This document shows, piece by piece, positions 22,650 through 63,840 of a stretch of 64,000 bases of DNA (its first letter is position 1; each line of letters begins with the position of its first letter). Origin of the DNA: Balamuthia mandrillaris (taxonomy: Eukaryota); contig JAVKOQ020000077.1 of the NCBI GenBank assembly GCA_031835245.2, positions 124,001-188,000 on the forward strand. Direction: 5' to 3'. The notes beneath the pieces are model-generated. The model was not told the DNA's origin and searched no databases. It worked only from the letters and a program-made list of their open reading frames with translations. The translations under genes and the position numbers were made by a program.

Positions 22650-22918
22650 GCCTTGATGTCGGCACGAAATGTTTGATTGTTGATTGGATGAACGAATTTA
22701 AATATATTCCTCGAAAATTTTCATTCATTCTTTGTCGACAAAAATTTTTATCTTCGAGAAAGAAGAAGACCCGTTCCCCAAAGAGAGGGCTGTTACCCTT
22801 CCTCTCTCCCCCTTGTGCTTCTTGATGGGTCTTTTCTTGTTAGAAATAGATTTGACCCGCTTGTTTGGAACGTTTGTCTGACCAAAAAAAACTTCTAAGG
22901 AAAAGAAAAAAGAAAGAA

Positions 22919-25046: not shown

Positions 25047-25082
<36 letters not shown>

Positions 25083-31477: not shown

Positions 31478-32461
31478 CTAGGGGTCTGGTGAAAATTTTC
31501 CTGACGTCAAAGCGTCCTCCACACGCACCCTTAGCTTGAAGCGAAAACAAAAGGAGAAGATAAGGGCTAGAGGACGAGCTGACACTCCGCGGGGCGGAAC
31601 CTCTTCCCGAGGTGCTACCCAGCGATAGCAGATTAATCCACACCCGCTGGGGCAAGTACTACTTGGCCATACCGATGCCTTTGGAGGGGAGCGATAATCA
31701 AGCTCCCTCCTCCTCTAGGGTGCCCAAGGTAGTGGCGATCGACCCAGGAGTGCGCACCTTTATTACTTGTTATGTGGGTCCCGAAGGCAAGGCTTACGAG
31801 TGGGGACGGAACGATATCGGACGCATCTATCGTATTTGCCACTATCTGGACGACCTCCAGAGCCGATGGGGCCAACCAGGCGTCAAAGCCAGACAGCGCT
31901 ATCGCATGCGAAGGGCAGCGGCCCGAATGAGGGAACGTATTCGCAACCTGGTGGACGAGGTACACAAGAAGATGGCCCTCTGGCTGGTCAAGAAACACGA
32001 CCTGGTGCTGCTGCCCAAGTTCGATACCAGCAACATGGTGCTCAGGCGGAGCGGGAGACGTATCCCAAGCAAGACCGCCAGAGCCATGCTGGGTTGGGCG
32101 CACTACCGCTTTCGCATGCGCTTGCTGAACAAGGCCAGGGAGTACCCCCACTGCAGGGTGGAGATCGTGGACGAGCACTACACCTCCAAGACCTGTGGAA
32201 GATGCGGACGTATCCACCAGAAACTGGGAGGGAAGAAGGTCTTCCGTTGCCCCCGTTGTCGCCTGGAAGCAGACAGAGACATCCATGCTGCCAGGAACGT
32301 CCTTTTGTGTTTCCTGGCACATCAGGACATCATTGTGGCGAAAGGTAGGGAGCTGTACGGACAGAGTCCGGCAGCATTGGGTCCTACACCCGTGAATGCA
32401 TCCACCCATTGTGGTGCATTAGTGCAAAGATTTGCAAAATGATGTGCAAGTTTAATGTAGG
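31478..32461 (+). mobile_element. 5'-truncated Fanzor2 / IS607-like element remnant
   Basis: Abrupt switch from helicase-derived sequence to intronless GC-richer sequence at about 31478, a TnpB-like ORF, and a structured 3' end finishing in GTAGG at 32461. No transposase seen in the window. Confidence 0.75.
31564..32442 (+). CDS. Fanzor: Fanzor2 (TnpB-like RNA-guided RuvC endonuclease), N-terminally truncated
   Basis: Open frame from 31564: AEPLPEVLPSDSRLIHTRWGKYYLAIP (WED strands), VVAIDPGVRTF (RuvC-I Asp), RIRNLVDEVHKK, VLLPKFDT (Pro at the canonical RuvC-II Glu), IVDEHYTSKTCGRCG (alternative Glu and Zn finger), FRCPRC, DRDIHAARN (RuvC-III Asp). In-frame stops at 31537 and 31561; first ATG only at 31675. 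Confidence 0.92.
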   Translation, partial: GLEDELTLRGAEPLPEVLPSDSRLIHTRWGKYYLAIPMPLEGSDNQAPSSSRVPKVVAIDPGVRTFITCYVGPEGKAYEWGRNDIGRIYRICHYLDDLQSRWGQPGVKARQRYRMRRAAARMRERIRNLVDEVHKKMALWLVKKHDLVLLPKFDTSNMVLRRSGRRIPSKTARAMLGWAHYRFRMRLLNKAREYPHCRVEIVDEHYTSKTCGRCGRIHQKLGGKKVFRCPRCRLEADRDIHAARNVLLCFLAHQDIIVAKGRELYGQSPAALGPTPVNASTHCGALVQRFAK

Positions 32462-32481: not shown

Positions 32482-32696
32482 TTGGCTCGCGATTCCCATG
32501 GCTGGTTATCTTTTTTTGTCGACGATTCATCGAATAGTATTATTTGGGTTAATCGATACTATTTTCTAATATTGTAATTATTGTCCTCATATATCGATAT
32601 TTTTCGGTTAGGATTATCCACGCCGATCAATTTAATCGAAATTTCGTATATCCAACATGAAAATAGAAACGAGGAAGAGGACACCAAACATCAAGC

Positions 32697-34010
32697 ATGG
32701 ACGCGGCGAGTATGCTGCCCACGGAGATGTGGTACGCAGTGCTGGTCGAACACCTGCCCAAGGGGGCCAGAGGAGTAGTTGCCACCGTTTGTTGGACTTG
32801 GCGAGAAGTAATCAAGGGATTAGCCCCACCAGCGCAAGAACGTAAGATATCACGAACCTACTGCTGCGAGCACACTCTGGACCTAGCGAAATGGGCCGTT
32901 TATTACGAAATCGACTCCATGAGGAACCTCTACGACAACGACTTTATGTACGGTGCCATTTCTGTTGGCAACCTCGACGTCCTCAGATGGCTGGTGGACG
33001 AAATGGGCTGTCAAGCCCATGACGAAGGGGAGTATCTCTATCGCGCCGCCGAGTGCGGTCATTTGCACGTGCTGCAATGGCTCGTCGACGAACACGAGTG
33101 CACGATGTGCGAGACGGCTTGCGAATTTGCGGCACACGGGGGCCACCTGGATGTTTTAAAATGGGCCAAAACACAAGGATGCAATATAACGAAAGAAGTG
33201 TGCCATGAGGCCATCCGAAAAAACCGCATGGACATGTTGGTGTGGGCAACCATTGAAGGAGACGCTTGCTTGGATGCCGAAGCCTTGTCCATGGCCGTGG
33301 AGACTGGCAACTTTGAGTTGGTGGCTTGGCTTGTCGATGAAGCCGAGTGTCCATGGGACGAGACAGCTTCTTCGACAGCGGCCAGGAGTGGCAACTTGAA
33401 CATATTGCGCTGGTTATTGGAAAACGGTTGCCCTAGCAGCAGCTCTGATTTGTTCGTGGAGGCAGCAGCCGGGGGTCATATAGACACAATGCAGTGGTTG
33501 CTACATGAAGGATATCAATGGGATGAGGACACGTGTGCCAGTGCCGCACAACATGGACAGTTGGAGGCATTGCGATGGGCACGTAGTAACGGCTGTCCTT
33601 GGGACGAACAAACCTCCATCAACGCCATCGAACATGGACGAATGGACATACTTAAGTGGTCGCGGAGCATGGGATGTCCGTTGAGCGATCGCGAGTGCGC
33701 ACGCGCGGCCGCCAGAGGTCATACCGAAATTCTTCGCTGGCTGAGGGAGAACGGGTGTCCTTGGGACGGACAAACCTGTTTCAACGCCGCGAGATACGGA
33801 CACCTCGAAACGCTCGCTTGGGCACGAGAAAACGGTTGCAATTGGAATGCCGAACGTTGTAGAAACGCAGCTGGTATACATAGACATCGCCGCGTTGTAC
33901 GCTATATAACAAACACCCTCCGGCAGGAAAGTGGCTTGCCCACACGCAACAAGAGCGAATCGCATAGACGCAGAAAAAGAAGAAGAATGAATAAAAACAG
34001 TTTTGTTTGA
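32697..34010 (+). CDS. Intronless F-box-like + ankyrin-like repeat protein (giant-virus-style)
   Basis: LPTEMWYAVLVEHLP...ATVCWTWREV followed by about 12 repeats of GCPWD..TC..AA..GHL..L.W; basic NLS-like tail RRRKRRR. Confidence 0.9.
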   Translation: MDAASMLPTEMWYAVLVEHLPKGARGVVATVCWTWREVIKGLAPPAQERKISRTYCCEHTLDLAKWAVYYEIDSMRNLYDNDFMYGAISVGNLDVLRWLVDEMGCQAHDEGEYLYRAAECGHLHVLQWLVDEHECTMCETACEFAAHGGHLDVLKWAKTQGCNITKEVCHEAIRKNRMDMLVWATIEGDACLDAEALSMAVETGNFELVAWLVDEAECPWDETASSTAARSGNLNILRWLLENGCPSSSSDLFVEAAAGGHIDTMQWLLHEGYQWDEDTCASAAQHGQLEALRWARSNGCPWDEQTSINAIEHGRMDILKWSRSMGCPLSDRECARAAARGHTEILRWLRENGCPWDGQTCFNAARYGHLETLAWARENGCNWNAERCRNAAGIHRHRRVVRYITNTLRQESGLPTRNKSESHRRRKRRRMNKNSFV

Positions 34011-43311: not shown

Positions 43312-43732
43312 TGTTTTTTTTTTTCGCACAAACGTTTGAGGATGGGGGCAAGAGGAGGGGGGCAAGAGGTGGGAAGCAAAGATAAAAAAAATAAAATCAC
43401 AAACCGCTTTTAACTTCTCTCTCTCTCTCTCTTTGTCTTTTTTTTTTTTCGTTACTTTCTTCTCTTGAGTTCACCGTGACGACACGGTTCCGCTGAGAGG
43501 TCTGGGACTCGGATAAATACCTTGAACATCTGTTTTTTGTCCAGCGATCCAATGGGCGATGGACAATCCCCCGGTTGGACAAAAGAAGTTTGCGATCTTA
43601 TCTGGACTTGGGAGCAACAAAAAAAAAAACGGTACGTCTAGCGAGGGGAGAAAGAAGGAAGGCGGCAGCAGCTACGGACATAGACTTCGCTTGGCCCGCC
43701 GCAACGGCTCTAATAGAGCTTGCTAGCAAAAA

Positions 43733-45139
43733 ATGTTGCATCAAAAGCGCAGGATAGCCGACAAGGAAGACGACGAAGGACTGGACGGATCCGCCACGAA
43801 AAAACCACGAGGAGATAAAGCCGAGGTCGCTTTGTGGGAAGAATGCTTGCCAGAGGAGCTGCTGTGTGTCATTTTGGCCGCGCTGGATCCGTTGTTCGTG
43901 GGCATAGCGGCCAGGACCTGCCGCACTTGGTACTCCTGTGCTCCGGAGCAGCTGCGAAACCGTTTGTTCCAGGCAGCCGTTTGCCAGTCTCTCACGCTCT
44001 TACAATGGGCAGTCGAGGAGAACGGTTGCCCTCTGGACAAAAAAATGGCCGCCCTCATAAGCAAATGCGGTAGCTTGGAAGCGTTGAAATGGGCTCGACT
44101 GGAAAAAGGCTGTCCTTGGGACATTGAGGCTTGCTCTTCAGCTGCTGGCAACGGACATTTGGAGGTGTTACAATGGGCCAGAGAGAACGGGTGCCCTTGG
44201 GGCGCTCAAACTTGCCAACAAGCTGCTAGGCACGGCCAGTTGGAGGTGTTGAAATGGGCTAGAGAGAATGGATGCCCTTGGGACGAGGCTACTTGTTGCT
44301 CTGCTGCTTTTGGTGGCCATTTGGAATTGTTGCAATGGGCACATGACAGCGGATGTCCTTGGGACGAAAGAACTTGCTCGTGGGCTGCCTGGAAGGGGAA
44401 CCTGAATGTATTGAAATGGGCAAGCGAGAATGGCTGTCCTTGGGATGAAACTACCTGTTCCTCAGCCGCCAGCAAAGGACATCTGGAGGTGTTACAATGG
44501 GCCAGAGAGAAGGGGTGCCCTTGGGATGAGAGCACTTGTGCTCATGTTGCTGAGGAAGGACATTTGGAAGTGCTAAAGTGGGTGAGAAGAAACGGATGTC
44601 CTTGGGATGATGACACATGCACAGCAGCAGCTGAAAGAGGGCATCTAAAAGTGTTGAAATGGGCAAGAGCAAATGGCTGCCCTTGGAATGAAGACACTTG
44701 TAATATGGCCGCAGAGTATGGCCACTTGGAGGTGCTAAAGTGGGCCAAAGAGAACGGATGTCCTTGGAATAAGCAAACATGCCATCACGCTGCAAGGAAT
44801 GGACATTTGGAGGTATTGAAATGGGTCCGAGAGCACAGATGCCCCTGGAGTGCAAAGACTTGTGCTTTGGCCGCCGAGTATGGCCACTTGGAGGTGCTGA
44901 AGTGGGCCAGGGCAAATGGATGTCCTTGGAACGAAAAGACATGTTACTCAGCTGCTAGCACCGGACAACTGGAGGTGTTAAAATGGGCGAGAGCAAATGG
45001 ATGCCCTTGGAACCAGCTGACTTGGGGCATGGCGGCGATGTACGGACACGCAGAGGTGTTGCAATGGGCAAAGGAAAACGGATGTCTTTCTTTCACCAGG
45101 GCTGAAGAAAACGGAGTCTCCGACTCGGACCTGCATTGA
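43733..45139 (+). CDS. Intronless F-box-like + ankyrin-like repeat protein (about 13 x 27-aa repeats)
   Basis: LPEELLCVILAALDP...AARTCRTW then tandem GCPWDExTCxxAAxxGHLEVLKWAREN units with an 81-nt period. Confidence 0.92.
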   Translation: MLHQKRRIADKEDDEGLDGSATKKPRGDKAEVALWEECLPEELLCVILAALDPLFVGIAARTCRTWYSCAPEQLRNRLFQAAVCQSLTLLQWAVEENGCPLDKKMAALISKCGSLEALKWARLEKGCPWDIEACSSAAGNGHLEVLQWARENGCPWGAQTCQQAARHGQLEVLKWARENGCPWDEATCCSAAFGGHLELLQWAHDSGCPWDERTCSWAAWKGNLNVLKWASENGCPWDETTCSSAASKGHLEVLQWAREKGCPWDESTCAHVAEEGHLEVLKWVRRNGCPWDDDTCTAAAERGHLKVLKWARANGCPWNEDTCNMAAEYGHLEVLKWAKENGCPWNKQTCHHAARNGHLEVLKWVREHRCPWSAKTCALAAEYGHLEVLKWARANGCPWNEKTCYSAASTGQLEVLKWARANGCPWNQLTWGMAAMYGHAEVLQWAKENGCLSFTRAEENGVSDSDLH

Positions 45140-45328
45140 AGCAAACGTGAGCATGGAAAACAATAACAATAAATTCATGTTGGCAACTAACCTCCGAAGA
45201 GCAACGTGCTGTCACAAAAGGGCTCTCATGAATGAACCGTTCTCTTCCGCAAGGAAATTTTGTGTGTCGACATGAGGCAGCAGATTTCTTCTCTCGTGAC
45301 GACACAACATTTCAAGCGACAAACGAAG

Positions 45329-46853
45329 ATGGCAGAGGACCTGGAAGACAGACTGCACAGCGCTGCTGAGGCTCAGGAGGAAGACGACGCGGACCGACCT
45401 GCTGATGTTTGTTTCCGTTTTTCATTTCACCTCTTGCATGACCTTTGTTTTCTCATGTATTTTATTTTGTTTCTCAACTTTAGCGGTTTCTTCTCCCTGA
45501 TTTAGAATCGGAGCGTCCTCCTCCTTCCTTGCCACCCATCCGAAGACACGGAGAGCATAACACAGGACCCAAAGGAGTCATCCAGGACTACAAGGAGGAG
45601 CAAAAGCGGCAACGCGACCAACAGGAAATACGACAGCTGCAATTGCAGTACGAGATCAACAAGAAAACGGTAGTGTACCACTCGTGGTCCGCCCAAGATG
45701 CTGAGAAGAGAGAACTGGACATGGAGCGGCAGCAGGAAGAGAAGGCAAGACAAAAAGAGGAAGCAAGCGAGGAAGAGGTGCACCTGCTTTTCTCGTTCTC
45801 ACCTCTCTTTCTCCCTTCTCTGCTCTCTTCTCTCCTCTCTTCTCCCTTCTCCCTTCTCCCTTCTCTGCTCTCTCTTCTCTAGTTCGCTCGTTTCTTCTCT
45901 CGTTCTCTCCGCTCCTCTTCGATCCTCTTCTCTCTTCTCTCATCTCTCATAGCATTATCTTCTTATTCTCAGGAGGACTTGGATGACGAGGACGACGAGT
46001 TTTTGAAGCAGTACAGGGCAATGCGGCTAAGAGAGCTGATGGATCAAAAGTACGTTGTTATTCCTCACAGGAAGAAACTTGATTGCTGACGAACGAGTCT
46101 TTTTTTTATTATTCCAGGAAATATCGGTTTGGCACTCTTAAACGGATAAATAAACAAGAATGGGCTGAAGAAGTGGACAGCGAAATAGCGACTGGATGCT
46201 TTGTTGTCATTCACCTCTATTCAGAGGTATTTTCCGTTCTCATTCTTCTTTCTCCTCTTTTTTCCTTGTGACTTCTTTTCTCTCTTTATTTTTTGTTGTT
46301 TCTTTTTAGGTTTTTGTTATTGCTTTCTTTACTTTTCCTTCTTCCAATCTAGTTCCTTCTTTCCTCTCCTTCTGTTATGAGAAATAACATATCAGTGCTT
46401 TAATAGATGGTTCCACCATGCGTGCGGGCCAACTATGTCTTGGAAGAACTGGCACGCAAGCATCCGGACGTGAAGTTCTTGAAGATCCCTGCCAACGAGG
46501 CCAAAAGGGACTGGGACGAGGTGGCCCTTCCCACTCTCTTGGTCTATCGCAAGGGAGAGAACTATGCTCAGTACGTTCGTTTCATCGATGACATTGGCTA
46601 TGAGTTTGATGAGGATGACCTTGAAGCTTTCTTGATACGGTGCGTTCTCCCTCCCTCTGTCTCTCCCGCTATCCCCCTCTTTCTCTCCTCTGGCGCTTTC
46701 TTGTTCGCTTGTTGCCTTGCTTGTTTCTCCTTTGGTTTTGTGTTATATAGTTTAACGCTTTTTGTTTCTGTTTTTTCAAAAACAATGCGCTTGCTGATTG
46801 TCCATCGCAGAAAGGGCATCCTTGCGCCACGCACAGCTGCTTCTTCTCACTAA
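45329..46853 (+). CDS. Phosducin-like protein (PhLP1 type, multi-exon)
   Basis: NTGPKGVIQDY helix-1 motif, DEFLKQYRAMRLRE, and thioredoxin-like domain FVVIHLY...ELARKHPDVKFLKI...ALPTLLVYRKG. Confidence 0.92.
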
Positions 46854-47386
46854 AGCGCATTCTTTTCCTCCAAACTTTAAGGGGCGATTCAAACTCCCCA
46901 ATCAAAAATCAAAAACATGATCTATTTATTTCCATTTCAGGAGAAAATTTAATTAACCACTTTCCAATTTTAAAAACCTTAAATTCTTTCTCCGCAAATG
47001 AACTCATTTTGTCCTCCATTTGTGCAGCGTTCCGCGCCAAAAATAAATAAAAAAATTTAAGGAAAAGAAAAGAAAGACAAGGAAAGGAAAGCGTTGGGCA
47101 AAAAGACTTGGGTTCATTTCATTTCGGGTATGAAAAGCAGGAGACCCTCTCCTTCCTCCATTCCCTGCTCTTTTCTTTTTATTGAGCAACATATCCTTGG
47201 TTGTTTCTTCTAATCCGTTGTTTTGTTTTTTTTTTTAATTAAAAAAAAGATATTCGCCGAATCTTCCCCACGCCTTGTGTAACGCCACGGAGAGAAGCTC
47301 TTTCTTCTTCTTCTTCTTCTTCTTTCTTCTTCGACAAACAAAAGTAGAAGAGGTGAAAGAGAAACGAAAGAAAGCCGCGCGTAAAA

Positions 47387-50300
47387 ATGTTTGCGCTTCC
47401 CGATGGAACAAGCGAGGGCGAACTGTCGCTTCCCGACTCGGAAGACCCCAAAGTGGCGGCCTGGTGCAGGGAGAGAGGGCTGGAGAAGTACCTCCCCCTC
47501 TTTCAGCTGCATGAGATCGACTACACTGCGCTCCTCATGTTGAACGAGGAGGACTTGAAGGAGCTCAACTTGCCGTTGGGACCCAGAAAGAAGATCTACG
47601 CTCACATTTGTCGGACGAAACAACAAGAAAGAGGTGTGGAACCTCCTTCTTCGTCTTCTTCCACTTCCTCGTCTCCTCCTCCCTCTCGTTCCTCTGCTTC
47701 TTCTTCTGCTTCTTCTTCTTCTTCTTCTTCTTCTTCTCCTCCTCCTCCTTCTTCTCCTTCTTCTTCGGCCACGACAACACCGAGTCATAAGAAAGAGACA
47801 GAGAAAGCCAAGTTACTATCGAGTGCTGCGTTTTGGCGGAAGTTAAGCGATGGAGCGCAACTGCAGCTCTTTCGGGATCAACTGAGCAGCAAGAAACAGC
47901 AAGAAGAGCGTCAAGACCAAGATGGAGAACTACGGGAACACAAACAAGAAGAAGAGGGCACTAAAGAAACGAAGATACAAACTTCCGATGAAGATGAAAG
48001 TCGACAGAAGAAAGCAAAACAAGCAGTGAATGAAGACGAACAAAAGAGCGATGAAAATGATGAAGACGACTCTTTCGATGAGGATGATGATGATGGCTGG
48101 ATCTATCCTGATGACGAAGGAGGGACAACGAACATAACGATCAACGAGACGGAGACAGAAAAAGAGAAAGAGACAGAGAAAGAAAAAGCAAAGACAGCTC
48201 AACTCAACGCGCTTGGCGAGAAAGAGAAAAAGGCAAGGAATGAGGAACCCACTCACTATGCCCAGATGATACGACCAACCCTCCAGACGAGTGGTATGCA
48301 TTTCCTCTTACCTTTTCTTGGCGCTCACTTCACGTGAGTTTGCCACGTCTTTATAATTGTTGTTTCTTTTACTCTTGTATTTATTTGTATTTGCAAAATA
48401 GATTACGAGGTAGACTTGGATGAAGTACAAATGGAGGAAAAGATAGGTCAAGGCCAGTTTGGCGTCGTTTGGAAGGTATGTATTCCTCTTGCTATTTGTT
48501 TGAACTTGCGGTTCTCTCTGTGCTTTGCCTTGCTTTTTTTTGTTCATATTTCATTCTGTCTGCAATGAAAGGCGCGATGGAGAGGACAGACAGTGGTTGT
48601 CAAAAAGCTCCTCTCAATGGATGCAAAGCAGTTGGAAGAGTTTCGCAACGAAATGTATATATTTATGCAGCTCAAACCCCATCCCAACGTTGTCAAGGTA
48701 TTTAAGCTTCTTTCGCTCTTTCTTTTACTTTTTTTATTAGCCACTTATCTCTTTTCCTTTCGTCTGTTCACAACAAAAAAAAAAAGTTTTTAGGTCTTTG
48801 CACCCGAATGCCAAACGTTTGTTTGATGACAGAATATCTTCCTTTGGGCGATTTGCTCCATCTGCTTCAAAACCTCAAAGAAAACAACAAAGACACTTGT
48901 TTGCTCAGCCTTGAGGACAAGTTGCGAATGGCGTTGGGAGCAGCATGTGGAGTGCAACATCTTCACCAGGAGAACATCTTGCATCGAGACTTGGCTGCTA
49001 GGAACTTGCTTGTGACCAAAGTGGAGGGAGAGTACGATGTCAAGGTGACCGATTTTGGTCTATCCAAGATTGGAGATTACTATGAGAGCGCGTCCGCCTT
49101 CGGAGCGCTCAAGTGGATGAGCCCGGAAGCTATCAACCCGGAGAGCTCTCGTTTCTCCAAGAAAAGTGATGTTTGGAGCTTTGGCGTTCTTCTTTGGTAT
49201 GTTATCTTCTTGTTTTTGTTGTTGTTTGTGTTTTGCTTTCTTTTTAATCATGTATTCTTTTCTGGTGCCTTAAATAGGGAGCTTTTAACGGATGGGGAAA
49301 AGCCATTTGATGGAATGTCTGCCATCGAGGCAGGAATGGCTATCATGATGGGAAAACGCTTGAAGCTGCCGTCCACTTGTCCTCCTGCACTTGCAGAACT
49401 GGTTCGGCAATGTTGGAGAAGCGATCCACAAGATAGACCCACTTTTGGTCACATTGTGCAACAACTTCAACGAATTTATGTCGAACATCTGAAAGAACAA
49501 AACGACACCAGAGGAGGAAAACAAGTAGGGAGGAATCGAGATGACGAGGAAAAAGACGAAAAGCAAAAACAGAAAGAATGTGAAGGAGAAAGATCACAAC
49601 GCAGTTCGGATGGTGATGAAGTCGACAAAAACGTGCAAGCTGACCGAAAACAGCGTCTTTTCTTCTCCGTTCCTTCCTCATCTTCGTCCAATAACAACAA
49701 CAGTGACAAGTTCGGTTCGCTGCGAACGAAACAATTGGCAGATATGGTCAAGTTTCAAAATGATGAAATTAGCAAGTTTAGAAACCTGTTCCATCTTTGT
49801 GGCTACGACAGCAACCTAACACCACAACCTCATCAATCACTTACTTCTCAGTCTTCCTACGAAGTACCCACTTGGAGGAAAGCCTTATCTCCAAGAGGCG
49901 ATAAAAAAGAAACAACAGAAGCCTCAGCCTCTGAGCCTTGTTCCTCTTCCCCTCCTTCAGCATCTTCTCAACGCAAAGGAATAGTAAGTAGCAAAGCGGA
50001 AGAGGATGCGCCGCTGAAGATAGCGATGGTAAGCAAAGACAATGTCGCGGAAGCGGCCTTCAGCCTGAATTATCACAAGTTGGCAAAGGCGCAGAGCGGA
50101 CGATCGTTGAGAACTTCTGCTCCGTCTGCAGCTGCACAGGCTATTGAGAATTCATGCTCTTCCGCTTTTAGCCCCATGGCCTTTAAAGACAGTCTAGTTC
50201 GTTTGCAGCCGGCACAAATGATTGAACTGATGATCGAGTCTATGGTCTGTTTGACCTTTTGTTTTTCTTTCTTTCTCTTTTTCTCTTTCTCTCCGTCTTT

Positions 50301-52797
50301 GTTTTATGATTAAGGCTTATCCATTGCTTTCATAGAAATTGGATGAAGACAGCTTACAGCTACGAAAGCGATACGAAGCGCTCATTCTTCGACAGGCGAG
50401 CGATCTTGGACAAGATTCCCTGTTTGGTAATCTACTGCACGCTATATCTACGTTGCCACACAAGTTCTCCAAGTCCAAGGCACGGCTGGTGGAAACTCAG
50501 CTCCATTTCATGAAGTTGCTTACCAACTGCATGGCTTGTCGCTGGAACTCCGTGGTATGTGCTCATTTCCTTTCCTGCTTTCTGCTTTCTTCTCTCTTCT
50601 TTCTTCATCTTTCTCTGCTTGCTTTAGCATTTTCGTTATGCTTCTTTCTTCTTTCTTGTCTCTTCTCTCGTCATCTTCTCTCTTTTTTTTGATGAGGCAA
50701 AAATGTAGAAACATGAGATGAAGGTTCAACTTGGCTACTACAATGCAAATGATAACGATCGCTTGCCCATATTGGAAAAACTAGAAGAGATTTCTCCCCC
50801 TCCTCTCGACAACGACCTCGTCAAACAAATGCTTCAACTAGCATTCAGCTTTCTCTCTCACAACAAGAACAATAAGGAACACCATCATCACTATCACACT
50901 CTCTCCAACAAACATAACGTCAACCTCGTTCTTCCTGTTCCAAAATGGATTGAGCTGCATTTGAACGTAACTTCCGAGAGAGCTCTTTCTGAGACGGCTG
51001 GACATCTTATCTTCCAACTTTCTTCGGTAAACTTTGCCACCGTCTTTCAGGAAGCTGTCGAAGGACCTCTCTTATCTTCTCCTTCTTGTTCTTCTTCTTC
51101 TTCTTCCTCTTCCTCTTCCTCTTCTTCTTCTTTTTCTTCTTCTTCTTCTTCTTCTTCTTCTGCTTCTTCTGCTACTCCTCCGTCACGAGAGCAAAGCATT
51201 GCATTGGCGTTGGAGACAATTCAGTTTTTGAACTTTGATTTACCAAAGTTACAACAACTGTTGCAGTTGCTTTTGCCTCACGTGGAAGCTAGTGAGAATG
51301 AGGCGGAGAGCTCTTCTTCGTCCTTGTCATTGTTGTTGCGCAGTTCGATTCACATGAAAGTCATGTTGGCGAATGCCTTGACGAAAGCCATTTGGAACTG
51401 GATCTATCACCACCCTTTGCAGTTTTCCGACTTTCAACAGAAATCGGTTGGCATTCAAGGTCTGCTTTCTTTCACTTTCTCTCATTTTCTTTCAGTTATG
51501 TGTATTCTCGTTTTTCGGTATGTTTACCATAAGCTCTTTAACAGAGGCGAGTTTATTATTTGATCTTCTGAGTAATTGGAAGAAAGAAAAACGAGGAACG
51601 TTGCGTAAGAGCAATAAAAAAGCAAAGACAGAGATGAGGATCCTATGGCCGAGCAAAATGATGTTGCTGCTTCTCTGTCCGGATATATTGACTCCTCTCA
51701 TGAGCGCCAAACACGAGAGACTGCGATTGAATTTACGCTGCACTGAAACCTTTAAACCCGAAATCATTCTGTTGGAAGGAGCAAAAATCGCTAAAGTATG
51801 CCTTTGTTTTCTTTTTTCTCCCTGCTTTCTTTATCTCTCTCTCTCTCTCTCTCTCTCTCGCTCTCGCTCTCTCCCACTCTTTACTTCTATCATGCAATTT
51901 GGTGCTCATTTGTTATAAACAACCAAAAAAACAAAGGAACAATTCTTGGAACAGTTGGAAGAAGCACTAGATTCAGACAAGATCTGCAAGGAAGCATTGC
52001 TCTGCCTCTCCTACCTCTGCAAAGCTGCCACATTCGTTTCTCCAAAGCACTCCTCCTCGCTTCGCGCTATCACTCCCAAATACGAGTCCATCTTGGAGGA
52101 AGCTCTCTTTGATCCCTCTCGTCCTCCCACTTTAACCTCTTCCTCTGCATCCCCCTCCACTATCAATCTCCTCAACCTACGAAATCCTTCTCCTTCGCTA
52201 GCTTCTCCCTCTTCGCCTATAACACAGAAAAAAGGAGGGGGGCATGACTACAGCGTTCAACTCATGTCGGACGTTTTGGTAACGCTCTTTCGGTTGAACC
52301 CATTACACACTGTAAGATACCTTTTCAATCCTTTCTTGACATCCGCTTATCCTTCCATCTTCAAGTTGGTGTTAGCCAATGCGCTAAGAAAGATTGTGGA
52401 AGAAAGCGAAAGTTCTGCTCATGACTCCACAAATGCAAACAAGAAACAACAACAAACGACTTCGGAGAAGAAGAAAGAACAAAGAAAGAAAGAAACGGAT
52501 GGATCATCATCGTTGGCCGAAGATGGAGGAGGAACATTACGATGGCATCCTTGGCGAAAGAAAGCAGGAAGAAATCGTGCAAACTCAAATCCGACTCCAA
52601 ATGCCAGCAGCAACAAACAGAAAGAAACTGAAGAGAAGAAAGCGAAACACGAAAGTAACAGAAACCAAGCGGAAAGAGTGCCTTGGCATCCCACCTTTGC
52701 TGTGCTGCTTCGGTTTGTGGATGAGAGCAAGAACAACGTGCAAGAAGATAAGTTGGATACTCTGCATTCCTTCTTAGAAAGTTTCCAGCGGTTATAA
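47387..52797 (+). CDS. SAM - tyrosine-kinase-like kinase - neurofibromin N-terminal-like fusion protein (multi-exon)
   Basis: SAM: VAAWCRERGLEKYLPLFQLHEID...LKELNLPLGPRKKI. Kinase: IGQGQFGVVW, VVVKK, HPNVV, HRDLAARN, DFG, KWMSPE, SDVWSFG. C-terminal region: IFQLSSVNF, KAIWNWIYHHPLQF, LWPSKMMLLLLCPDIL, YLCKAATFV. Confidence 0.85.
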
Positions 52798-52870
52798 ACT
52801 TCAGAAAAACAAGTTTCAGTTATGCACATCTATTTCTTTTATAAAACGTATGTTCAAGTGATCGGGTCGT

Positions 52871-53626
52871 TCAAGGCAGGTCAGCGAGGGACTTCTTGGC
52901 AGGAAGATCTCCTTTCTTGGGAGCTTCCTTGGCCTTGCCCATCTCCTCGAACATGAGGATCTTCTTGAGAATGGAATTGCCGCCTGGACCCAACATCATC
53001 TCCAAGAATTCATAGTAACTATTTCGCATAGCAGAGGTGAGAGGAAACAGCGGATGAGAAAAGGAGAACGAGAGCAGCGAAGCAGAGGAGAGAAGAAGAG
53101 GCAAGAGAGACGAAGAGAAAAAGTGTGAAAGATGGAACGTACGAAATAGCGCCAGTGCCAGACTTGTTGACCTGAGCGATCATTTTCTTGATCTCCATGT
53201 GCGTCTTGGGTTGTCCCAATTTCTCCAACATGAACTTCACCTCTTCGATGCCCAACTCGCCGTTCTTGTTTCTGTCGTAAACGATGAACTTTTCTGTTTT
53301 GTTTTTTTATTGTTTGTTTGTTTTGTTCATTGGAAACTAGAAAAAGAAAACACAAACAAACATACCTTTGTACTTTTCGATTTGAGCGGGATCAGCGTCA
53401 GGATTGGCGCGTCTGTACTCTTGTCCAATGCGGTCCAGATCAGCTTCCTACGCAAGCGCAGCAGCGGCAGCAAACAAAACGTAAGGAACCAAACAAAAAG
53501 TAACCAAAGACAGAGAGGAGAGCATTAACGCACCATGACCTTGAGCTTGCTGCCAAAGGCCTTGCCGCCTTGGGGATTCTTCACGATGACATTGATGTCC
53601 TCCTGCGGTCTCTCGCGTTGTTGCAT
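52871..53626 (-). CDS. Allograft inflammatory factor 1 (AIF1/Iba1)-like EF-hand protein (4 exons)
   Basis: QGGKAFG, YDRNKNGELGIEEVKFMLEKLGQPKTHMEIKKMI, FLEMMLG..NSILKKILMFEE and PAKKSLADLP closely parallel animal AIF1. Confidence 0.9.
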
Positions 53627-53931
53627 CTTTGTTTATTCGTCCTTCTTGTTAGCGTGGCAGCAAAGGTGAAAGAGAGACAGATGCGTGTAACGGCGAAAAA
53701 ATTAAAGCTTGAGGGGTGGAAATGATACTTTTGCTTTAATTTTGTAATGTGATCTGATCTCGATTTTTAAACTCCGAAGGAATGTGATTGGTAGAAACAT
53801 AAATACCTGAAATGGAAAAGTTTAAAAGTATTTTTTCTGTAAAGACAGGAAAAGGAAGGCAACACAAAAACAGATAAACAACGCCCGTTGCGCAAGTTGT
53901 GGAAGCAGGCCGGAACAAACGAAGCAAGAGG

Positions 53932-54261
53932 ATGAGACTGACGGTGGCGGCTTTGGTTGTGGTAGTGGTAACCGTGTTGTTGGGCTCGGTTAGAACAAAC
54001 GCGCAGAGCGAGGAATGCGTGACGGAATTGGACAAACGAATACTGCACTACGACTTGGTAGAGACTCAAATCAAAATCCAACAAAAGATAAGTGACTTGG
54101 AGCAAGTTTACGTGGCTGTGGATGAGGGCGCCTTGCACCTTGACGATGCAACCTGTGGTGCTACCTTGGCGAAGACGTTAGACACAGAGACCCTGCGGGC
54201 GTGTGTGGACGACCTCGTGGAAGGCACTCTGGACCCCTTGCTCGCCGCTCTCAGCTCTTAA
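53932..54261 (+). CDS. Small secreted helical protein, unknown function
   Basis: Signal peptide MRLTVAALVVVVVTVLLGSVRTNA, then an acidic coiled-coil-like mature part with 3 Cys. Confidence 0.6.
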   Translation: MRLTVAALVVVVVTVLLGSVRTNAQSEECVTELDKRILHYDLVETQIKIQQKISDLEQVYVAVDEGALHLDDATCGATLAKTLDTETLRACVDDLVEGTLDPLLAALSS

Positions 54262-54914
54262 TCTTAGCCTCTTCTTGTTTTCTTTTGTTATTGGTTCCTC
54301 TGTTCTTTTTAATGTTTTGCTTGTTTGTTGCCGGCGTCAATCTGCCGTAATAGCTAGCAACCCGCTTTCCGTGGGTTTGACACAATTGCTTTCAAATTCT
54401 CTCTTTATTTGCTGTACCGCCTGCACGGTTTCATTCGCGACATCACCGTGATATGTTTATTTGTTTCCCCAATTTTTTTTGCTTTCAAGAAAGTATACGC
54501 AAGCATGTTGCCGTTCGACAACTTTGACAAGAAAAATTCGTTCCGCCGTTCTCTCGCTGTGAAGAGCTGAGGGGTCAAATCCAACGAAAGTCCAAAAATG
54601 CAACTGTAGGATTTTCGCCTGATTGGCGGATAAATTTGAATTGCCCGAAGCACGTGGCATTCTTCTTTTCTATGATTTTAAGGTGGGTGCAGATTAAGGA
54701 GGTGCCGCTATTGGCCCGCCAATTCAAAACATCTGCTCTCTATCTCGTGCGCGCCGGGCTCTGTCCGAGTGCCTTAACGGTTTTATTAAGTGCTGTCTGT
54801 GTTTTTTAATTTTTTCACTCTTCATACTCTCTCTGCCAACATAAAGAGCGCTGAAAACGTTATAACAACAAACAACAAACACAACAAGACAAAGCAAACC
54901 TTTCGCTCATAGCC

Positions 54915-55706
54915 ATGCACCGTCATCAGAGGCACCGCTACAGGCGACCCACTGCTCTTCAAAGCCTCAACGTGCTTGTGGACACGGAGCGAAAGAAGAA
55001 GGAAAGGCTGGAATGGTACCTACAAGAAGTGCTCAAGGAACGTTCTTCCTTGCTCTGCGAATGCGGCGCGTTTTTCGGCGCTTACCAACCGCCTCAACCT
55101 CCGCGGGTTTCTTCGTCTTTTTTTTGCACACCACGAACGAGCTCCACCTATCGCACCGCTCCTACCCTTACTCCCACCACAGCTTCTATTCCATTGACAG
55201 CTGCCACCGCTGAACCTGTCAAAGAAACAAGTTATTTATGGCCTTCCTCAACCTCCACCTCCCTCCTAGCCCAAGTCCTTCCAACGACTGATGTTTCCTA
55301 CGACTCACTTTGTGGCTCTCCTGACTACCACAAAAACGCAAACGAAAACCGAAACACTTTTTCCGTTTCACCACCACCACCAAAGCGAACGCAAGGTGAG
55401 CCAGACTGGAGTTTTCTGTGTTGGGAGGACGAAAATGAAGATGACGAAACAAACTACGACTTGATGGAGCCACTGCCAAAAGCAAAGTTCTTAGGGCGAA
55501 AACGGAGCCTCGAAGGAAACGAGTCCGGTGCAGACGAGGAAGAAGAGGAAAACGAGCAAGAACGGAACCACTTTAGAAGAGGATGTGAGAGCCCGCCGAC
55601 GGAGCGGCGGAGCAAACGCGAACGGCTGAACGTCAGCGACGACACGCGAAAAACCATGGTGAGGCCTCTGGAAGAGGATCAGATGGCCTCTCGCTTCCCC
55701 TTATGA
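54915..55706 (+). CDS. Hypothetical disordered protein (263 aa, intronless)
   Basis: ATG after an AAAC-rich leader; Ser/Thr/Pro-rich middle and acidic/basic tail; followed by a T-rich 3' region. Confidence 0.6.
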   Translation: MHRHQRHRYRRPTALQSLNVLVDTERKKKERLEWYLQEVLKERSSLLCECGAFFGAYQPPQPPRVSSSFFCTPRTSSTYRTAPTLTPTTASIPLTAATAEPVKETSYLWPSSTSTSLLAQVLPTTDVSYDSLCGSPDYHKNANENRNTFSVSPPPPKRTQGEPDWSFLCWEDENEDDETNYDLMEPLPKAKFLGRKRSLEGNESGADEEEEENEQERNHFRRGCESPPTERRSKRERLNVSDDTRKTMVRPLEEDQMASRFPL

Positions 55707-56011
55707 CAATTAGTTGTGCTTGTCGTTCTTCTCACTAAAAATTTTGGTTTTGTTTTTATTCTTTTTATTCCATTTTTTTCAATTTTTTTTTAAAAGGTAA
55801 TGATTTCCATGTCGTCACGGATGATGGCAGCATAATTATAATATAATTAATTAATCCTTAATTTACTCAATAACCTGAACCAAATGATTGCCACGAGCCA
55901 AACAAGATAAAACCCGCTTTAATTATCGATGGTTTTGGTAATCTCAAAGTCAAATAGGTTTTTTGTTCCGACCGCCGGTCTAACGGAGGGGGTTGAAGAA
56001 AGAGTCTGGGC

Positions 56012-57408
56012 ATGGCTGGGTTTCTGCGTCTTGCTTGTCCATGCGACCGTTTCTTGTTTTTGGTGTTGGGTGGTAACGCTCTTTCTTCTTTGCTCAAGTT
56101 CTCTGGGTTCTTTTTCGGTGCTCACACCACTTTCTGGTTGCCAACAACATTGACAGTATTGACAATAGTGAACGTTTTTGCTGGTGGAAGTAACTTAGAG
56201 TTGACTTTGCTGCACACAGCCAACGTTCAGTCCAGAGTGCTAGCCATTGATGATCACTCTGGCAACTGTGAGCCATCTGAAAGCGAAAAATGTCTCGGCG
56301 GTGTGGCCAGGCGAGCAACCTTTATAGACCAAGTTCGAGCCGAGCGGACAAACGTTTTACTGTTAGACGCTGGAGGTCTTTTGCAAGGTATGCTCTCTTG
56401 CTTTTCCTTGTTTTTTTCTCTTGTCATGGCATCAATCTTTGTGTTGAAGTTCCTGCTTTGTTCATGCCATTGTTCGCCTGCTCCTGTCGTCACTTTTGTT
56501 TTCGTTCTGCTTTCTTCCTTCTGAACAGTCTTTCCTTATTGTGTTCAATCCGTTGTTTGCTTTTATTTGCAGGATCGCTGTTTTATCTGGAATACAAACA
56601 CGAAGCTTTAAAACAGTACTATAACTGGATGGGTCAGTTATCATGGTCACCATATATGATATGGCTTTATATTCTTGTTTGTTTATATTTTGTTTGTTTC
56701 CGTTACAGGTTACGACGTGTTTAACCTGGGAACAAGAGAGTTTTTTGACCCACCAAACGTAGTTGGAGACTTTCTGGAAGGTTCCTCTTTTCAAGCTATC
56801 AGCTGCAATCTCAATGTCGAGGACGAACCGGCATTGAAAGGAAAGGTAATTCCTTTCCATTTGCTAAACTATACTGACGAAGGAGGAGGCCAAGTTATGG
56901 TCGGAGTTACGGGATTCGTGTCTGAGTTGTTGCCCTCCAAAGTGGCTAACATTGGAGGTATCAAAGTGGCGGATCCTATCAACTCGCTTCGAAGTGCTGT
57001 GGCTCAGATGCAGGACTTGGGAGGTACTCCATTTGTGCCTTTTTTGTGCTTCTCCGTTCTCGTTGCATCCTCACCTCTCCTCTATCTATCCATATCATAC
57101 CTGTATATATAGTGAGATGCATTATAGCAGTGGTGGGTGACGCTACACTGGTAAAGGAGGTGGTGGACACAGTTCACGGTATTGACGTGTTAGGTAAGCT
57201 CTTAATCCTATTGCTTCTTGAAATGGGCTAATACAAAGCCATCACATGAAGTGAGTGATGCACAGGTACTGTATTCTAACAATGACGACGATTTGGAAAC
57301 TTCTTATCCCGAGAGTCGCAAAGGACCATCTGGTACTGATGTTCCCATAGTAGCTTCTGGTATTCTAGGAACTCACATCGGAATGGTTCTTCATCCCTCC
57401 TCTGCTCT

Positions 57409-57445
<37 letters not shown>

Positions 57446-59924
57446 ATCAACTGAATGGTTTCACTGTGAGGTCAGTTGAACATCACGTTCTCCGAGCTGG
57501 GAGTCGTTTTGTCAGCAACAGGAGACAGCGTTGCATTAAACGTTACCACGGAGCCGCGAAGCGATTTCGTTAATGACATAGAAGCCAGATTGGTTGAGAT
57601 AGAGCAAAGTTTCGACAGAGTGGTAGGACGAGCTACAGCAGAAATCGGTTACTCTCTTGAAGAATGCAGGACTTTGCAATGCGCTATGGGAACCTTTGGT
57701 GCTGATGCTTTGAGAGCGGCTGGTGGTACCCAGTTTGGTTTCATCAATGGAGGTTCTATTCGGTACTTATGATTCCATTTCTAATTTTCCTCTTGTTATT
57801 TTTGTTCTTCTTCTTCAAATTCTCCTTCATCATCATCATCATTCGTCTTCTTCTTCCTTCTTCTTTCTCTGCCTATCTCTCTCTCTCTCTCTCTCGCTAT
57901 GTTTCTGTCTCGCTCGTCTAATGCAGTTACTCGTACTACTGCCATTGTAGAGCGCCGTTTCCAGCTGGTAACATCACTTTGGGGGATGTACTCAACGCGT
58001 TTCCATTTTCTTCGACGGATACGCTTTCGACCTTCCAACTGACAGGACTACAAATGGTTGAAATGTTGGAGAATGGCGTTTCACGAGCGGAAGACCTCAC
58101 CAACGAAGGCACTGGTCGGTTACTTCAGGTCAGCGGTTTCACCTATTCCTACAATCCAAACGAACCAGCTGGACGAAGGATAGTCTCCGTATCTATTCCT
58201 GGAGATTCGACTGCACAAAAGAGACAAGATGGTTCTGCGGGTAACCTCTTCTCTTCCTGTTGTCTCAACTTCCCTTCCCGTTCTATATCGCTGCGTCGTT
58301 TCGTTCTTGTCACTTTGTTCTTTCCTTTTTGCTTTATTTCTTTCTCTCTCTAAACCCTTTTGTTTGAAAAACACAAAAGCAACTTCCTATGTAAGCGTTG
58401 ACCTCGATGCTGTGTACAGTTTCGCCACTGTATCTTTCATTCGCACGGGCGGTGACAACTTCACCGTTTTGGAAGACAACGCGCGAAACGTGGATGACTT
58501 TGGCCCTAGTATCGATCGAGTGATGTTGGACTATGTGGCCGCAAACTTTCCTTTGGTTCCCAACGAGGAAGAGAGAATATCTCTGTCCGATGGAACGCGA
58601 ACTCTGTTTCCAGGTGCAGCAACGGTAGATGAAGACGAAGAGAGCACAGACGAGGCGTTGGTCATCGGCCTTTCGGTCTTGGCTGGAGTGACCGGCGTTC
58701 TTATTCTGGTGGTGGTCGCTCTGGCCATCGCTTTCGTGTTTTATCGTGGGAAGAGACAGAGAACAGGAAAGACGAGGCTCAACTTGAAGGAACCAGAATA
58801 CGAGCAACTTATCTACGCACAGTCGTCGTTCAAAGAGGAGGACTTGCGAGGCAACGCTTCTGGTGACGTTCAAGGTGTTGAGCTTGGGTCCATTCGAGCA
58901 GTGGCTTTGCAAAAGGTTTGTTTCGTTTGTTGCTTTTGTTTTGTGTTTTTTGCGTTATTGACTTTGTTGCTTGGTGATTGTAGTTTGTGATGGAGAAGGC
59001 GGGCCTTGAGGCACTGCTGAGCGTTGTAAACCAAAACGAGGTTTCCCTCCTGGCGGAGGCCCTTTGCTACATCTACACCACACACGCAAGAGGAGCTTTT
59101 CTTACGTTTTACCTCCTTAATCGAGCAATACAAGACTCTCAAGGTTCATTCTTCATTCTTTCTCATGTGGTGTTCTTGATTTCTTCTGTTTTTGTTTTTG
59201 TTCTTGTTGTTCTTCTCACATGTTCTTGTTCTTGTTCTTCTTGTTCTTGTTCTTCTTCTTCTTCCCTTCTTGTTCTTCTTCTTCTTCTTCTTCTTCTTCG
59301 TTTCAGTGCTGCTTACGTCTCTTGCTTCTGTACGCAGAAGAAGGAGTTATATTAAGAGAGGACAGCATGGGCACAGCCTCCTTCAAAATCTTTGCAAGGC
59401 TATGCGGCCTGCCCTACCTGTGGAAGACCTTTGCTCACATCTTGGCCGAGTTGGCCAGCCGTGACGAGGAGGAGGAGGAAGAAGATGGCGAAAACCTTCT
59501 CTCTTTGCACACCAAGGAGATGGAGGTCAATCCACAGCTGCTGGAGGAAGGATTGGACTTCAAAGGCGTAGAGTTAACACACAAGCTGCAGCTTCAGCTT
59601 GTTGTTCAGAAGATGTTTCTTCGCATCATGCGAACCAGTTCTGACTTTCCAGCGTAAGCTTCTTCTTTTTGAGGTTTCTTCGACCAAGCGTTCACATGTG
59701 CTAACCCTTTGTTTTGTTACTAGGCCGCTAAGAGATATTTGTAGGGAGTTAAGGCGTGTTGTGGAACATGAATATGCAGACGGTTGGCGGCAAGTGGTTG
59801 GAAGTCTCATCTTTCTTCGTTTCCTCACTCCAGCGTTGATCCTTCCTCATCATTACGGCCTGCTTAATGGTTTGGCTATCTTCTGCCATCCACAGTTACA
59901 CTTCTTTCTAACATTCCCTTTTCT

Positions 59925-59963
<39 letters not shown>

Positions 59964-60944
59964 TTCTCTCTGCCTCTTCTATCCTGGATGACGAACAGAA
60001 GCGCCATCTCCAACCATCCAACGGTTGTTGATCCTCATCTCCAAAGTGCTCCAAAACTTGAGCAACGGCGTTCACTTTGGTGAGAAGGAAGACTACATGG
60101 CCTCCATGAACGACTTCATAGACGCCAACGGGGAACGACTGGATAGCTTCCTCAGCGAGCTGACCAAACCGAAACTGTCCTCCTCATCCTCCGCCTCTTC
60201 TATCTTCTCCTCTCCGTCCGCTAGGGCCATCGCCAACAGCACAGCGGAACCGCCTCGGCGTTCTTCCATCATTACTTCCTCTGCGCCGTCCGTTTTGAAC
60301 AGTTCCACGAGCGGAAGCTCTCCCGAAGAGCTGGAGGCGGCCAAGTTGGTCCCAGAGACGGTCGCCAGCAACGCTCTCCTCTACTTGGATGAGTTTATCC
60401 AGCTTCACGCGATGAGCATCCTCACCCATCTGCAACAATCCTCGGAAACGGACAACACTGTACGCTTCTTTCCATGGCTTTACTTTTTTACTCTATACTC
60501 CTCTTCTCTCTCTCTCTCTCTCTCTCTCTGTCACTCACCCTCGACTGCTGGGCACAGGAATGTGTCGATTGTTTGTCGTTCTTGGTGGACCTAAGCCCAC
60601 GCGACATCAACGAACAACTGGCAAACGATAAAACTGTTACCAGCGGCGCGGCCACCATCCGGCGCTTCTTCGACCAGAACAGGCGAAAGAATAGAGTCTT
60701 CTCTTTCTCGAGCCCTGCCATGGATGCTGCGAACTCTGAGGACGATGAGGACGGGATCACCAAGGACAGCGACGATGAGGATCACGTTTTGAGCTCGAGC
60801 GAGGAGGAGGAGGAGCAAACGCAGCAGAAGGAACAACCGAAACCAAAGAAGGAAGGAAAGAAGGCCAAAAAAACACAAAAACAACAGAAGAGACAAAGTG
60901 TATCCTTACTCAAGAGCCTGACCAACAACAAGCAAATAGTTTAA
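56012..60944 (+). CDS. Receptor-like protein: signal peptide - 5'-nucleotidase-like ectodomain - TM - RasGAP (multi-exon)
   Basis: Spliced leader MAGFLRLACPCDRFLFLVLGVLTIVNVFA. Nucleotidase blocks LTLLHTANVQSR, CLGGVARRAT, LLLDAGGLLQGSLFY, NLGTREF, INGGSIR, AFPF, LLQVSG, SFIRTGGDNF. TM ALVIGLSVLAGVTGVLILVVVALAIAFVFY. GAP blocks ILREDS, IFLRFLTPALILP, ILISKVLQNLSNG..FGEKEDYM..MNDFI. Confidence 0.88.
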
Positions 60945-61870: not shown

Positions 61871-62928
61871 GTTCCTTCTCGTTCCTCTTTTTCCGCTCTA
61901 TTTCCATGCTAAAGGACTGAATCATAAAGGCTGAAGCTGCGTGTCTACCGGCATGTAAGATACGATTATACCTTTACTGGAGAAGAGGCAGTGGATTTCC
62001 TCTCGTGGAAGATGCAGCTTGACAGGGAGGAAGCACAACAAGTTGGCAACCTTTTGATGCGAGTGGGTATCTTTCGGCACATCAGCAACGAATGCCCATT
62101 ATCAGACGATCGCGTGGAGTATTATTTCTTCACAAAAGCGCATCACCATTCCCTAGGCCCAGCTTCTAAAGTACCCAACCGATTGAATCCCATCGTTGGT
62201 CATTTGGTGGTGGAACGTCTTCAAGTTTGTTCGTTGTTTCAGGACGGTGATGATTGCGACAAGGAACCCAAGTTCGTTCTTCAGTGTGACCACCAGGTTC
62301 GTGTATCTTCTCTCCTTATGTTGTCTATCCTCTGCTGCTTGACTAGGTTGGCCCTTTTCTTTGTGTTGTCATCTCTATCATCGTTTCTTCAGAGCAGATA
62401 GATTGAACTGCGTGGAACTTAAATAACAGATGTTCAAGTCACAGTCCCTACCTGCACGGAGAGAGGATGATCAAGTGCACAGAACACCGCTGCACATGAT
62501 GGTATTTTGGTCAAATGCCATTTTGACGGTGAGGGTGGAGTGCACGACTCGCAGTTGCTTAGCTAAGATTCCTTTGAATGATTTGAAGGAAGGTGGAGAG
62601 TTAAACCAGGTCCGAGTCCCTATTCACTTATCGCAACACGGTTACGGTCCTTCTGCTTCCTCATTCCCCAAGCGAGAAGAGAAGAGAGAGGATATACGCA
62701 AGGTGTTGCTTTTGGAACTGCGGTACAAGTTTTTGTTGGGAACCACAGACTGTGGAATGGCTCTTCCGTCTCTTCCTTTTGATATCTATTCTCTCCAGGT
62801 TGACGAAGACAAATACTTTGCACATTACAACCTCATGAAAACCATCGGCCATCGACCCAATCATCGATGCGGAACTAAAGACATTTTTTTGGTTGCGGAT
62901 GATAAACATGGTTTGTTTTGCCCGAAGA

Positions 62929-62973
<45 letters not shown>

Positions 62974-63840
62974 CCCTTCTCTCTCATTCTCTTGGCTCAC
63001 CTGAAAAAAGAAACCGAAACAGCAGAAGCGACTGGAACGTTTTCATACGGCATGAACTACTTACAAAACGCACGGATAGAGCTGTTCGTGCAGGAAGATG
63101 TCTCAACGGAGGAGTGGAAACGGGTGGGCAGCGGCAAAACAAACAAATACGGCAAGGCCACCATCCCTGTGCTTCCCTCCGCTTCCTCCCTCCAACGACG
63201 AGCAGGCTACTACCCCATCCGTATGATGGTGGCTGGAGACCTCTCCGTAGCAGAAGGTGCCATTTGGGTGCTGCAACGCGGCACGCAGGCTGTTGTCTTT
63301 GACATCGATGGCACGCTGACCACCGGCAACATCCAGGTAGTTACTCAAACAAGTCTCAACATGCTACACCTCGACTTTGATCCAGCGCTTCGCTCTGGAG
63401 CGGTCCAGTTGGTGAGGGCATGGGCTGTGAAAGGGTACCTTCCTATTTATCTCAGCGGTCGTTCAGGTTCATTCTATCGGCACACAAGAAGCTGGTTGAT
63501 AGAACATGGCTTGCCTCCTGGTCTCATCGGTCAGACCAAAGGTCGTAAACCTACTCTTCCTCTTTGGTACTCTGTTGGTCGTTTCAAAAGGGACTACCTT
63601 CGAGACATGGAGAAGGATTACATGCTGAACATCGTGGCTCACTACGGCAACACGTTGACCGACATCAAAGCCAGCAAGGCATTGGGCATACCTGCGAGTA
63701 GGACCTTTATTTGTGGAAAGACGGGAGGGAGAGAGGGCACCTTTGACGTTGGCAACGACTTCAACGAGCACGTCCACTATGTCATGACGCACATCCCAGA
63801 TGCAGCTGTCCCTGCTCCTAACTTTTGGACGTTTTATTGA
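61208..63840 (+). CDS. DEP domain + LNS2/lipin-like HAD domain protein (multi-exon; start uncertain)
   Basis: DEP: YTFTGEEAVDFL...REEAQQVGNLLMRVGIFRHI...YYFF. C-terminal GKTNKYGK, G.YPIRMMVAGD, AVVFDIDGTLT, GYLPIYLSGR and AHYGNTLTDI as in Nir/RdgB- and lipin-type LNS2 domains. Confidence 0.8.

Follow-up and report, generated by a model that had tools for sequence, protein, structure and literature searches.

A SAM-tyrosine-kinase-type gene spliced to a GAP-less neurofibromin N-terminal fragment in Balamuthia mandrillaris

The described systems closest to the gene considered here are neurofibromin, MNF, Ack1/TNK2 and the amoebozoan SAM-tyrosine kinases. Neurofibromin (NF1; also Ira1-Ira2 and Dictyostelium AxeB) is reported to have regions of largely unknown function outside its GTPase-activating protein (GAP) core (PMC4374526; PMC6983858), while the "miniature neurofibromin" MNF (Dictyostelium NfaA), another reduced NF1 relative in amoebae, is described as retaining the GAP-Sec14-PH core without its flanks (PMC4374526). 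Ack1/TNK2 is reported to place a SAM domain ahead of a tyrosine kinase and to carry a segment homologous to the tumour-suppressor regulator Mig6 (PMC10047419), and tyrosine kinases as such are already documented in Amoebozoa (PMC4053784; PMC4758236). Within a 64,000-nucleotide stretch of intron-rich eukaryotic DNA from Balamuthia mandrillaris (contig JAVKOQ020000077.1, positions 124,001 to 188,000; hereafter the window), one gene joins SAM and tyrosine-kinase-type domains to a diverged N-terminal HEAT fragment of neurofibromin. Its product is neither neurofibromin nor MNF, since its parts are known but their arrangement is new: the fragment is collinear with the neurofibromin N-HEAT region and has NF1 as its top fold match, but it lacks RasGAP, Sec14-PH and C-HEAT, ends in a new C-terminal cap and sits behind a kinase, and its reduction is the opposite of that in MNF, with the N-terminal flank alone retained.

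The kinase and NF1-like exons are spliced into one reading frame. The initial annotation had presented the gene as one open reading frame (ORF); the frame is indeed open and ends before any GAP domain, but it is assembled from nine GT-AG exons (47387-52797, + strand) encoding 1521 residues, with a single stop at the end. The motifs named there were all found at their places and in order. Seven of the eight introns (1, 2, 3, 5, 6, 7 and 8) are seen spliced in RNA-type data, among them intron 5, whose joint (50244 to 50336) links the two halves and is present in three studies: as one raw read in data set X15, as a contig in X13 (short side 93 letters) and as a contig in X2 (220 letters). X2 is listed as probable DNA and nonetheless contains spliced joints. 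This joint speaks against separate transcription of the kinase and NF1-like parts, an outcome raised in the initial annotation.

Two adjacent genes, one for a SAM-kinase and one for an unattached, truncated NF1 paralogue, or alternatively an assembly error, with the joint as minor read-through, would be compatible with the lack of a full-length read, with in-frame ATGs late in exon 5 and with a related metagenome contig (L001, considered below) that gives no view upstream of its NF1-like part. Such an arrangement is nevertheless most improbable in the face of the intron 5 joint spliced in three studies, of one X2 contig that runs continuously from 49510 through exon 6, of a kinase frame with zero stops in exon 5 ahead of the intron 5 donor, and of a diverged second strain in which single DNA contigs cross 47776-51071 and 51926-55000, a contiguity that argues against assembly error. 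Between 47830 and 48136 in this strain, eight of 12 differences among those listed alter the residue. Twelve differences carried by four X16 reads initially suggested a paralogue; two of them recur in the X11 strain, so that a diverged allele is equally likely.

The neurofibromin likeness proposed in the initial annotation withstood profile analysis. A hidden Markov model of 15 NF1/Ira N-termini matches residues 860-1393 (E 1.5e-67), and the part outside the query used to find homologues (residues 800-1235) scores 101.7 bits against a best of 7.7 in 500 shuffles, values that place the likeness beyond chance. The last exon alone, searched against the PDB, ranks human neurofibromin first (E 0.008), and an alignment led from this exon retrieves solely neurofibromin there (three sequences, E 2e-48); exons 7 and 8 searched singly against the PDB gave no NF1 match. 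Among 1.84 billion representative sequences the last exon has 40 matches at E <= 0.001, and of 25 scanned 13 have RasGAP and none has a kinase. Foldseek, which had been suggested as a check, returned NF1 at ranks 1-9 for the exon 9 model (best E 7e-4) and at ranks 1-12 for the exon 7 model (best E 0.22), both models being helical (mean predicted local distance difference test scores of 67 and 76) and built on NF1 alignments. For P0048 the Atlas yielded nothing beyond generic HEAT clusters of low recognition, to which no weight is given.

The fragment spans the first ~450 residues of NF1, approximately the first sixth of neurofibromin and about a third of its N-HEAT region; downstream of residue 1394 follow a K/E/Q-rich insert, a 39-residue tail and the stop (52795-52797). 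The absence of a GAP domain claimed at the outset agrees with the Pfam scans, which found no RasGAP in the gene, no RasGAP, CRAL_TRIO or PH_NF1 in six ORFs, and no match above cut-off in the four C-terminal ORFs; tblastn of five full-length NF1s against the window likewise found no CRAL/TRIO-PH module and no C-HEAT dimer core. Profiles of the NF1 stretch 444-525 failed to detect the tail of the fragment, their sole match being a short PW motif (23 of 2000 shuffles).

These limits bear directly on the earlier suggestion that the fragment is an NF1 dimerisation scaffold, which found no support. Human NF1 N-terminal fragments are reported to be monomeric (PMC6983858), the regions of the dimer are given as residues 1085-1172 and 1821-2018 (PMC7692384), and dimer formation is described as likely driven mainly by the central C-HEAT contact (bioRxiv 2021.02.18.431788). 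None of the mapped regions, nor the C-HEAT contact, falls within the fragment, in which only the small tip contact made by helices N1 and N2 could remain. Docking of the kinase on native neurofibromin, as first suggested, with the fragment replacing the NF1 N-terminal tip on the C-terminal HEAT end of its partner, is possible but unlikely. Human helices N1/N2 are described as packing against the far C-HEAT end (PMC8580823; bioRxiv 2021.02.18.431788), large N-terminal NF1 fragments reportedly reassemble with C-terminal ones (PMC6983858), helix N2 is weakly retained (5 of 2000 shuffles score as well) and a GAP-bearing NF1 is present in Balamuthia (P0097). However, the tip contact is reported as small, ~905-950 square angstrom (PMC8580823; bioRxiv 2021.02.18.431788), and as already occupied in a native dimer with an affinity of <5 nM, and the reassembling fragments are described as containing residues 1085-1172 (PMC7692384), which are absent here. 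Helix N1, moreover, is undetectable: 1631 of 2000 shuffles score as well, profiles of NF1 residues 1-38 and 1-70 give no match at the corresponding position of the fusion protein, and the conserved Arg of the helix aligns to Ser. The two tip helices fall in different exons, and the available Balamuthia NF1 model lacks its C-terminus.

The SAM domain of the fusion protein scores 38.8 bits, above the Pfam cut-off of 23, and in the kinase the G-loop, beta3 Lys, helix C Glu, HRD and DFG were all located as motifs, residues whose catalytic roles are textbook knowledge for kinases in general. The catalytic loop reads HRDLAARN and the nearest kinase relatives are tyrosine kinases; EGFR, a Src-Abl ancestor and ABL head the PDB matches, and the score of the plant Ser/Thr kinase CTR1 is close to theirs. 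A tree that contained no TKL outgroup places the kinase among amoebozoan kinases, in one clade of 11 (SH-like approximate likelihood ratio test 100). Kinase identity is 44-49% to the amoebozoan SAM-tyrosine kinases P0055, P0056 (Endostelium) and P0068 and to the relatives P0053 (Pellita) and P0064 (Balamuthia), and three of the amoebozoan relatives also place SAM ahead of the kinase; unlike the fusion protein, none of 37 kinase matches, obtained in searches bounded by length and shared words, bears an NF1 N-terminal region. The P+1-loop proline, which positions the substrate tyrosine and is present in all 35 aligned relatives, is Ala476 in this kinase, a codon covered by X13 and X2 contigs with no difference. 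No SH3, CRIB or UBA domain was found in the gene by Pfam scan, and Ack1 serves as a working analogy only, the borrowed part in the amoebal protein being a large HEAT domain.

With regard to origin, the nearest named relatives of both the kinase and the NF1-like domain are amoebozoan, Balamuthia mandrillaris included. Of the 106 NF1s compared, the highest score belongs to that of Balamuthia mandrillaris (P0097, KAL6048750.1; 126.9 vs 106.4 bits), which bears RasGAP and CRAL_TRIO_2 and to whose residues 40-446 BLASTP aligns residues 837-1394 of the fusion protein (28% identity, E 3e-44). A reduced tree places the fragment in a group of six (support 99/100) with Balamuthia and Luapelamoeba NF1, on an end branch about six times longer than that of Balamuthia NF1 (1.67 vs 0.27). 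Because Balamuthia NF1 is the best of the 106, the NF1 piece likely began as a partial duplicate of the lineage's own NF1 and then diverged fast, while a GAP-bearing NF1 remains.

The long branch, together with several low-complexity inserts, would also suit a neutral appendage decaying after a chance partial duplication. This explanation is very improbable given the NF1-like frame of ~690 codons free of stops and frameshifts, the allele differences in its exons (all six among those listed are silent, plus one in-frame insertion), the retention of core residues and the same end and cap in a second organism. Of the conserved NF1 positions, the fragment keeps 49 of the 72 that are hydrophobic but 16 of the 36 that are polar (p 0.023), a pattern from which we infer a retained fold with a changed surface, in which conserved polar positions have been remodelled.

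The second organism is represented by metagenome contig L001, reached via the second-best representative match, which encodes an NF1 N-terminal fragment in seven or eight exons. The best match of this fragment is the window protein (128.5 vs 119.3 bits), all three of the window's introns within the common span are shared, and its tail matches the last 39 residues of the window protein (score 58, 0 of 2000 shuffles), whereas canonical NF1 at the same place gives no match (593 and 353 of 2000 shuffles were as good). The L001 frame stops within ~30 codons of the shared tail and is followed by a 243-codon frame on the opposite strand. Twenty private residues are common to L001 and the fragment and absent from 21 canonical NF1s, other pairings sharing at most five, and the two form a clade with support of 100/99. 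Judged from sequence, the NF1 N-terminal arch is cut out, capped and retained in at least two organisms. One of 118 metagenome stretches was positive in the paralogue scan, and the derived paralogue was found in none of 41 viral and none of 35 prokaryote contig stretches.

Taken together, the evidence leads us to favour, with restrained confidence, a 1521-residue SAM-tyrosine-kinase-type protein whose diverged, GAP-less neurofibromin N-HEAT arch would serve the kinase as a folded module for targeting or scaffolding. On top of the spliced frame, the NF1 homology and the truncation, all of which are established, this proposal supposes that the partial duplicate of the lineage's NF1 was retained under selection, acquired its C-terminal cap and had its surface partly remodelled. 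The kinase would be active, perhaps switched on through SAM-driven clustering by analogy with Ack1, for which SAM dimerisation is reported (PMC10047419), and loss of the P+1 proline may alter its substrate preference. Having no Ras-GAP domain of its own, the protein would use the HEAT module to bind a partner or membrane site and thereby place the kinase, possibly at a site taken over from NF1, Ras-active feeding cups for instance; for Dictyostelium NF1 it has been proposed that the regions flanking the core direct the protein to feeding ruffles (PMC4374526).

The HEAT fragment could instead be an internal regulator that folds back to inhibit the kinase until a signal arrives, as is proposed for the Mig6-like region of Ack1. 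The analogy with Ack1 (PMC10047419) is the sole precedent, the linker of ~250 residues would permit such a fold-back and the remodelled polar residues would be compatible with it; a new external partner would account for this remodelling too, and we consider autoinhibition of this kind unlikely.

Several observations weigh against the targeting-module proposal. On the transcript side, the whole length is bridged by no single read or contig, raw reads are sparse (46, 56 and 6), and the intron 4 joint is absent among the joints listed; this intron comprises 81 bases, in frame and stop-free, so that the frame of the gene stays open whether it is spliced or retained. The fold models, given the alignments used, lean to NF1 and are not independent proof, and a Foldseek E of 0.001 was attained by one of the two. 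A first tree that placed the fragment beside Anaeramoeba was rejected as a long-branch join, and the placement with Balamuthia NF1 came only after 11 of 33 rows had been dropped (Anaeramoeba, five partial fungal cuts and five near-duplicates). As for L001, its identity to the fragment (33.6%) is not above that between Balamuthia NF1 and the fragment (35.3%), two long branches can join falsely, the common introns may derive from NF1, a long intron may exist beyond the contig end, and its hydrophobic/polar contrast follows the same trend without significance (p 0.20); since it begins within the NF1-like part, the fusion itself is seen under one species label only. Finally, the partner, location and activity of the fusion protein are predictions.

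The architecture, which the initial annotation had not recognised, was found nowhere else in the bounded searches, with no kinase in 106 and 40 matches to the NF1 N-terminal region; when proteins of 502-2000 residues were searched for words shared with the last exon, which is weak evidence, none of 1220 candidates scored. No such fusion and no N-terminal-only NF1 paralogue was found in titles and abstract openings, and within that scope the SAM-kinase-NF1 combination appears undescribed; the kinase architectures tabulated with the Acanthamoeba and Physarum genomes could bear on this. Kinases with shuffled domains are common in amoebae, so that the find is less surprising than it might seem. 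The NF1 N-terminal region is covered by no Pfam model, so that fusions of this kind are invisible to routine annotation, and the natural boundaries of the fragment could guide expression of the isolated NF1 tip and a study of what this tip binds. A bolder and doubtful extension would make the gene the first recognised member of an old amoebozoan family whose NF1 tip arch has become an independent, self-capped domain guiding a tyrosine kinase to the places where NF1 acts; if true, phosphotyrosine signalling would be coupled to Ras control of feeding cups, with the NF1 tip as an autonomous targeting domain. Table 1 collects the coordinates.

Table 1. Features of the fusion gene (window coordinates) and of contig L001
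Feature	Position	Strand	Basis
Whole gene: SAM, tyrosine-kinase-type domain, NF1 N-terminal HEAT fragment	47387..52797	+	spliced model; RNA joints at introns 1, 2, 3, 5, 6, 7, 8
Exons 1-9	47387-48293, 48402-48475, 48572-48697, 48787-49196, 49278-50244, 50336-50554, 50709-51459, 51545-51795, 51937-52797	+	GT-AG spliced model
Probable 5'-untranslated-region intron	47128..47249	+	inferred from GT/AG ends; X13 RNA-like contig departs from the DNA near 47131, its loose end matching near 47255
SAM domain (residues 22-74)	47450..47608	+	Pfam SAM_1, E 1.2e-9
Low-complexity linker, S/P- and D/E/K-rich	47609..48293	+	sequence
Protein kinase domain, tyrosine-kinase type (about residues 306-572, exons 2-5)	48410..49476	+	Pfam PK_Tyr_Ser-Thr, E 1.6e-51
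Exon 5: kinase end and stop-free linker of ~250 residues; may close with a degenerate NF1 helix N1	49278..50244	+	sequence; N1 match not significant
Intron 5, joint of kinase-bearing and NF1-like exons	50245..50335	+	spliced in X15, X13 and X2
Diverged neurofibromin N-terminal HEAT fragment with low-complexity inserts	50336..52410	+	hidden Markov model, BLASTP, Foldseek
Derived C-terminal cap (begins VPWH; predicted helices, low confidence) and stop	52678..52797	+	tail match to L001
Low-complexity K/E/R/S-rich frame, 243 codons, open from the contig end, convergent on the truncated NF1-like gene	L001 1915-2646	-	sequence

The fusion gene is flanked directly upstream by a phosducin-like gene (45236-46900, +) that is spliced in X2, and close behind its stop by a convergent AIF-1/EF-hand gene (52838-53630, -), two introns of which are confirmed by RNA and whose arrangement is confirmed by a second-strain contig. 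Further downstream, an apparent single gene (55997-60600, +) combines a secreted-type 5'-nucleotidase, a transmembrane helix and RasGAP and may encode a nucleotide-sensing receptor RasGAP. Its RasGAP, near 59700, was examined as a split-off remainder of NF1 and rejected, as it lies behind the 5'-nucleotidase and transmembrane helix and has no Sec14 match. At 61928-63840 (+), a DEP domain precedes a PITM-type beta-sandwich and an LNS2 domain.

Elsewhere in the window, long ORFs carrying both the N- and the C-terminal domain of UvrD helicase precede a 760-codon ORF with no Pfam match (22856-29596, +), and a DUF885 match (11690-12403, +; E 5e-15), from a family described as bacterial, may point to gene transfer. 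Intron-free ankyrin-repeat ORFs occur at 43727-45139, with an F-box, and at 32667-34010 (+). The latter region adjoins an intron-free TnpB-like ORF (31564-32442, +; Cas12f1-like_TNB E 4e-18, OrfB_IS605 E 4e-7), which we take to be probably a Fanzor-type element.

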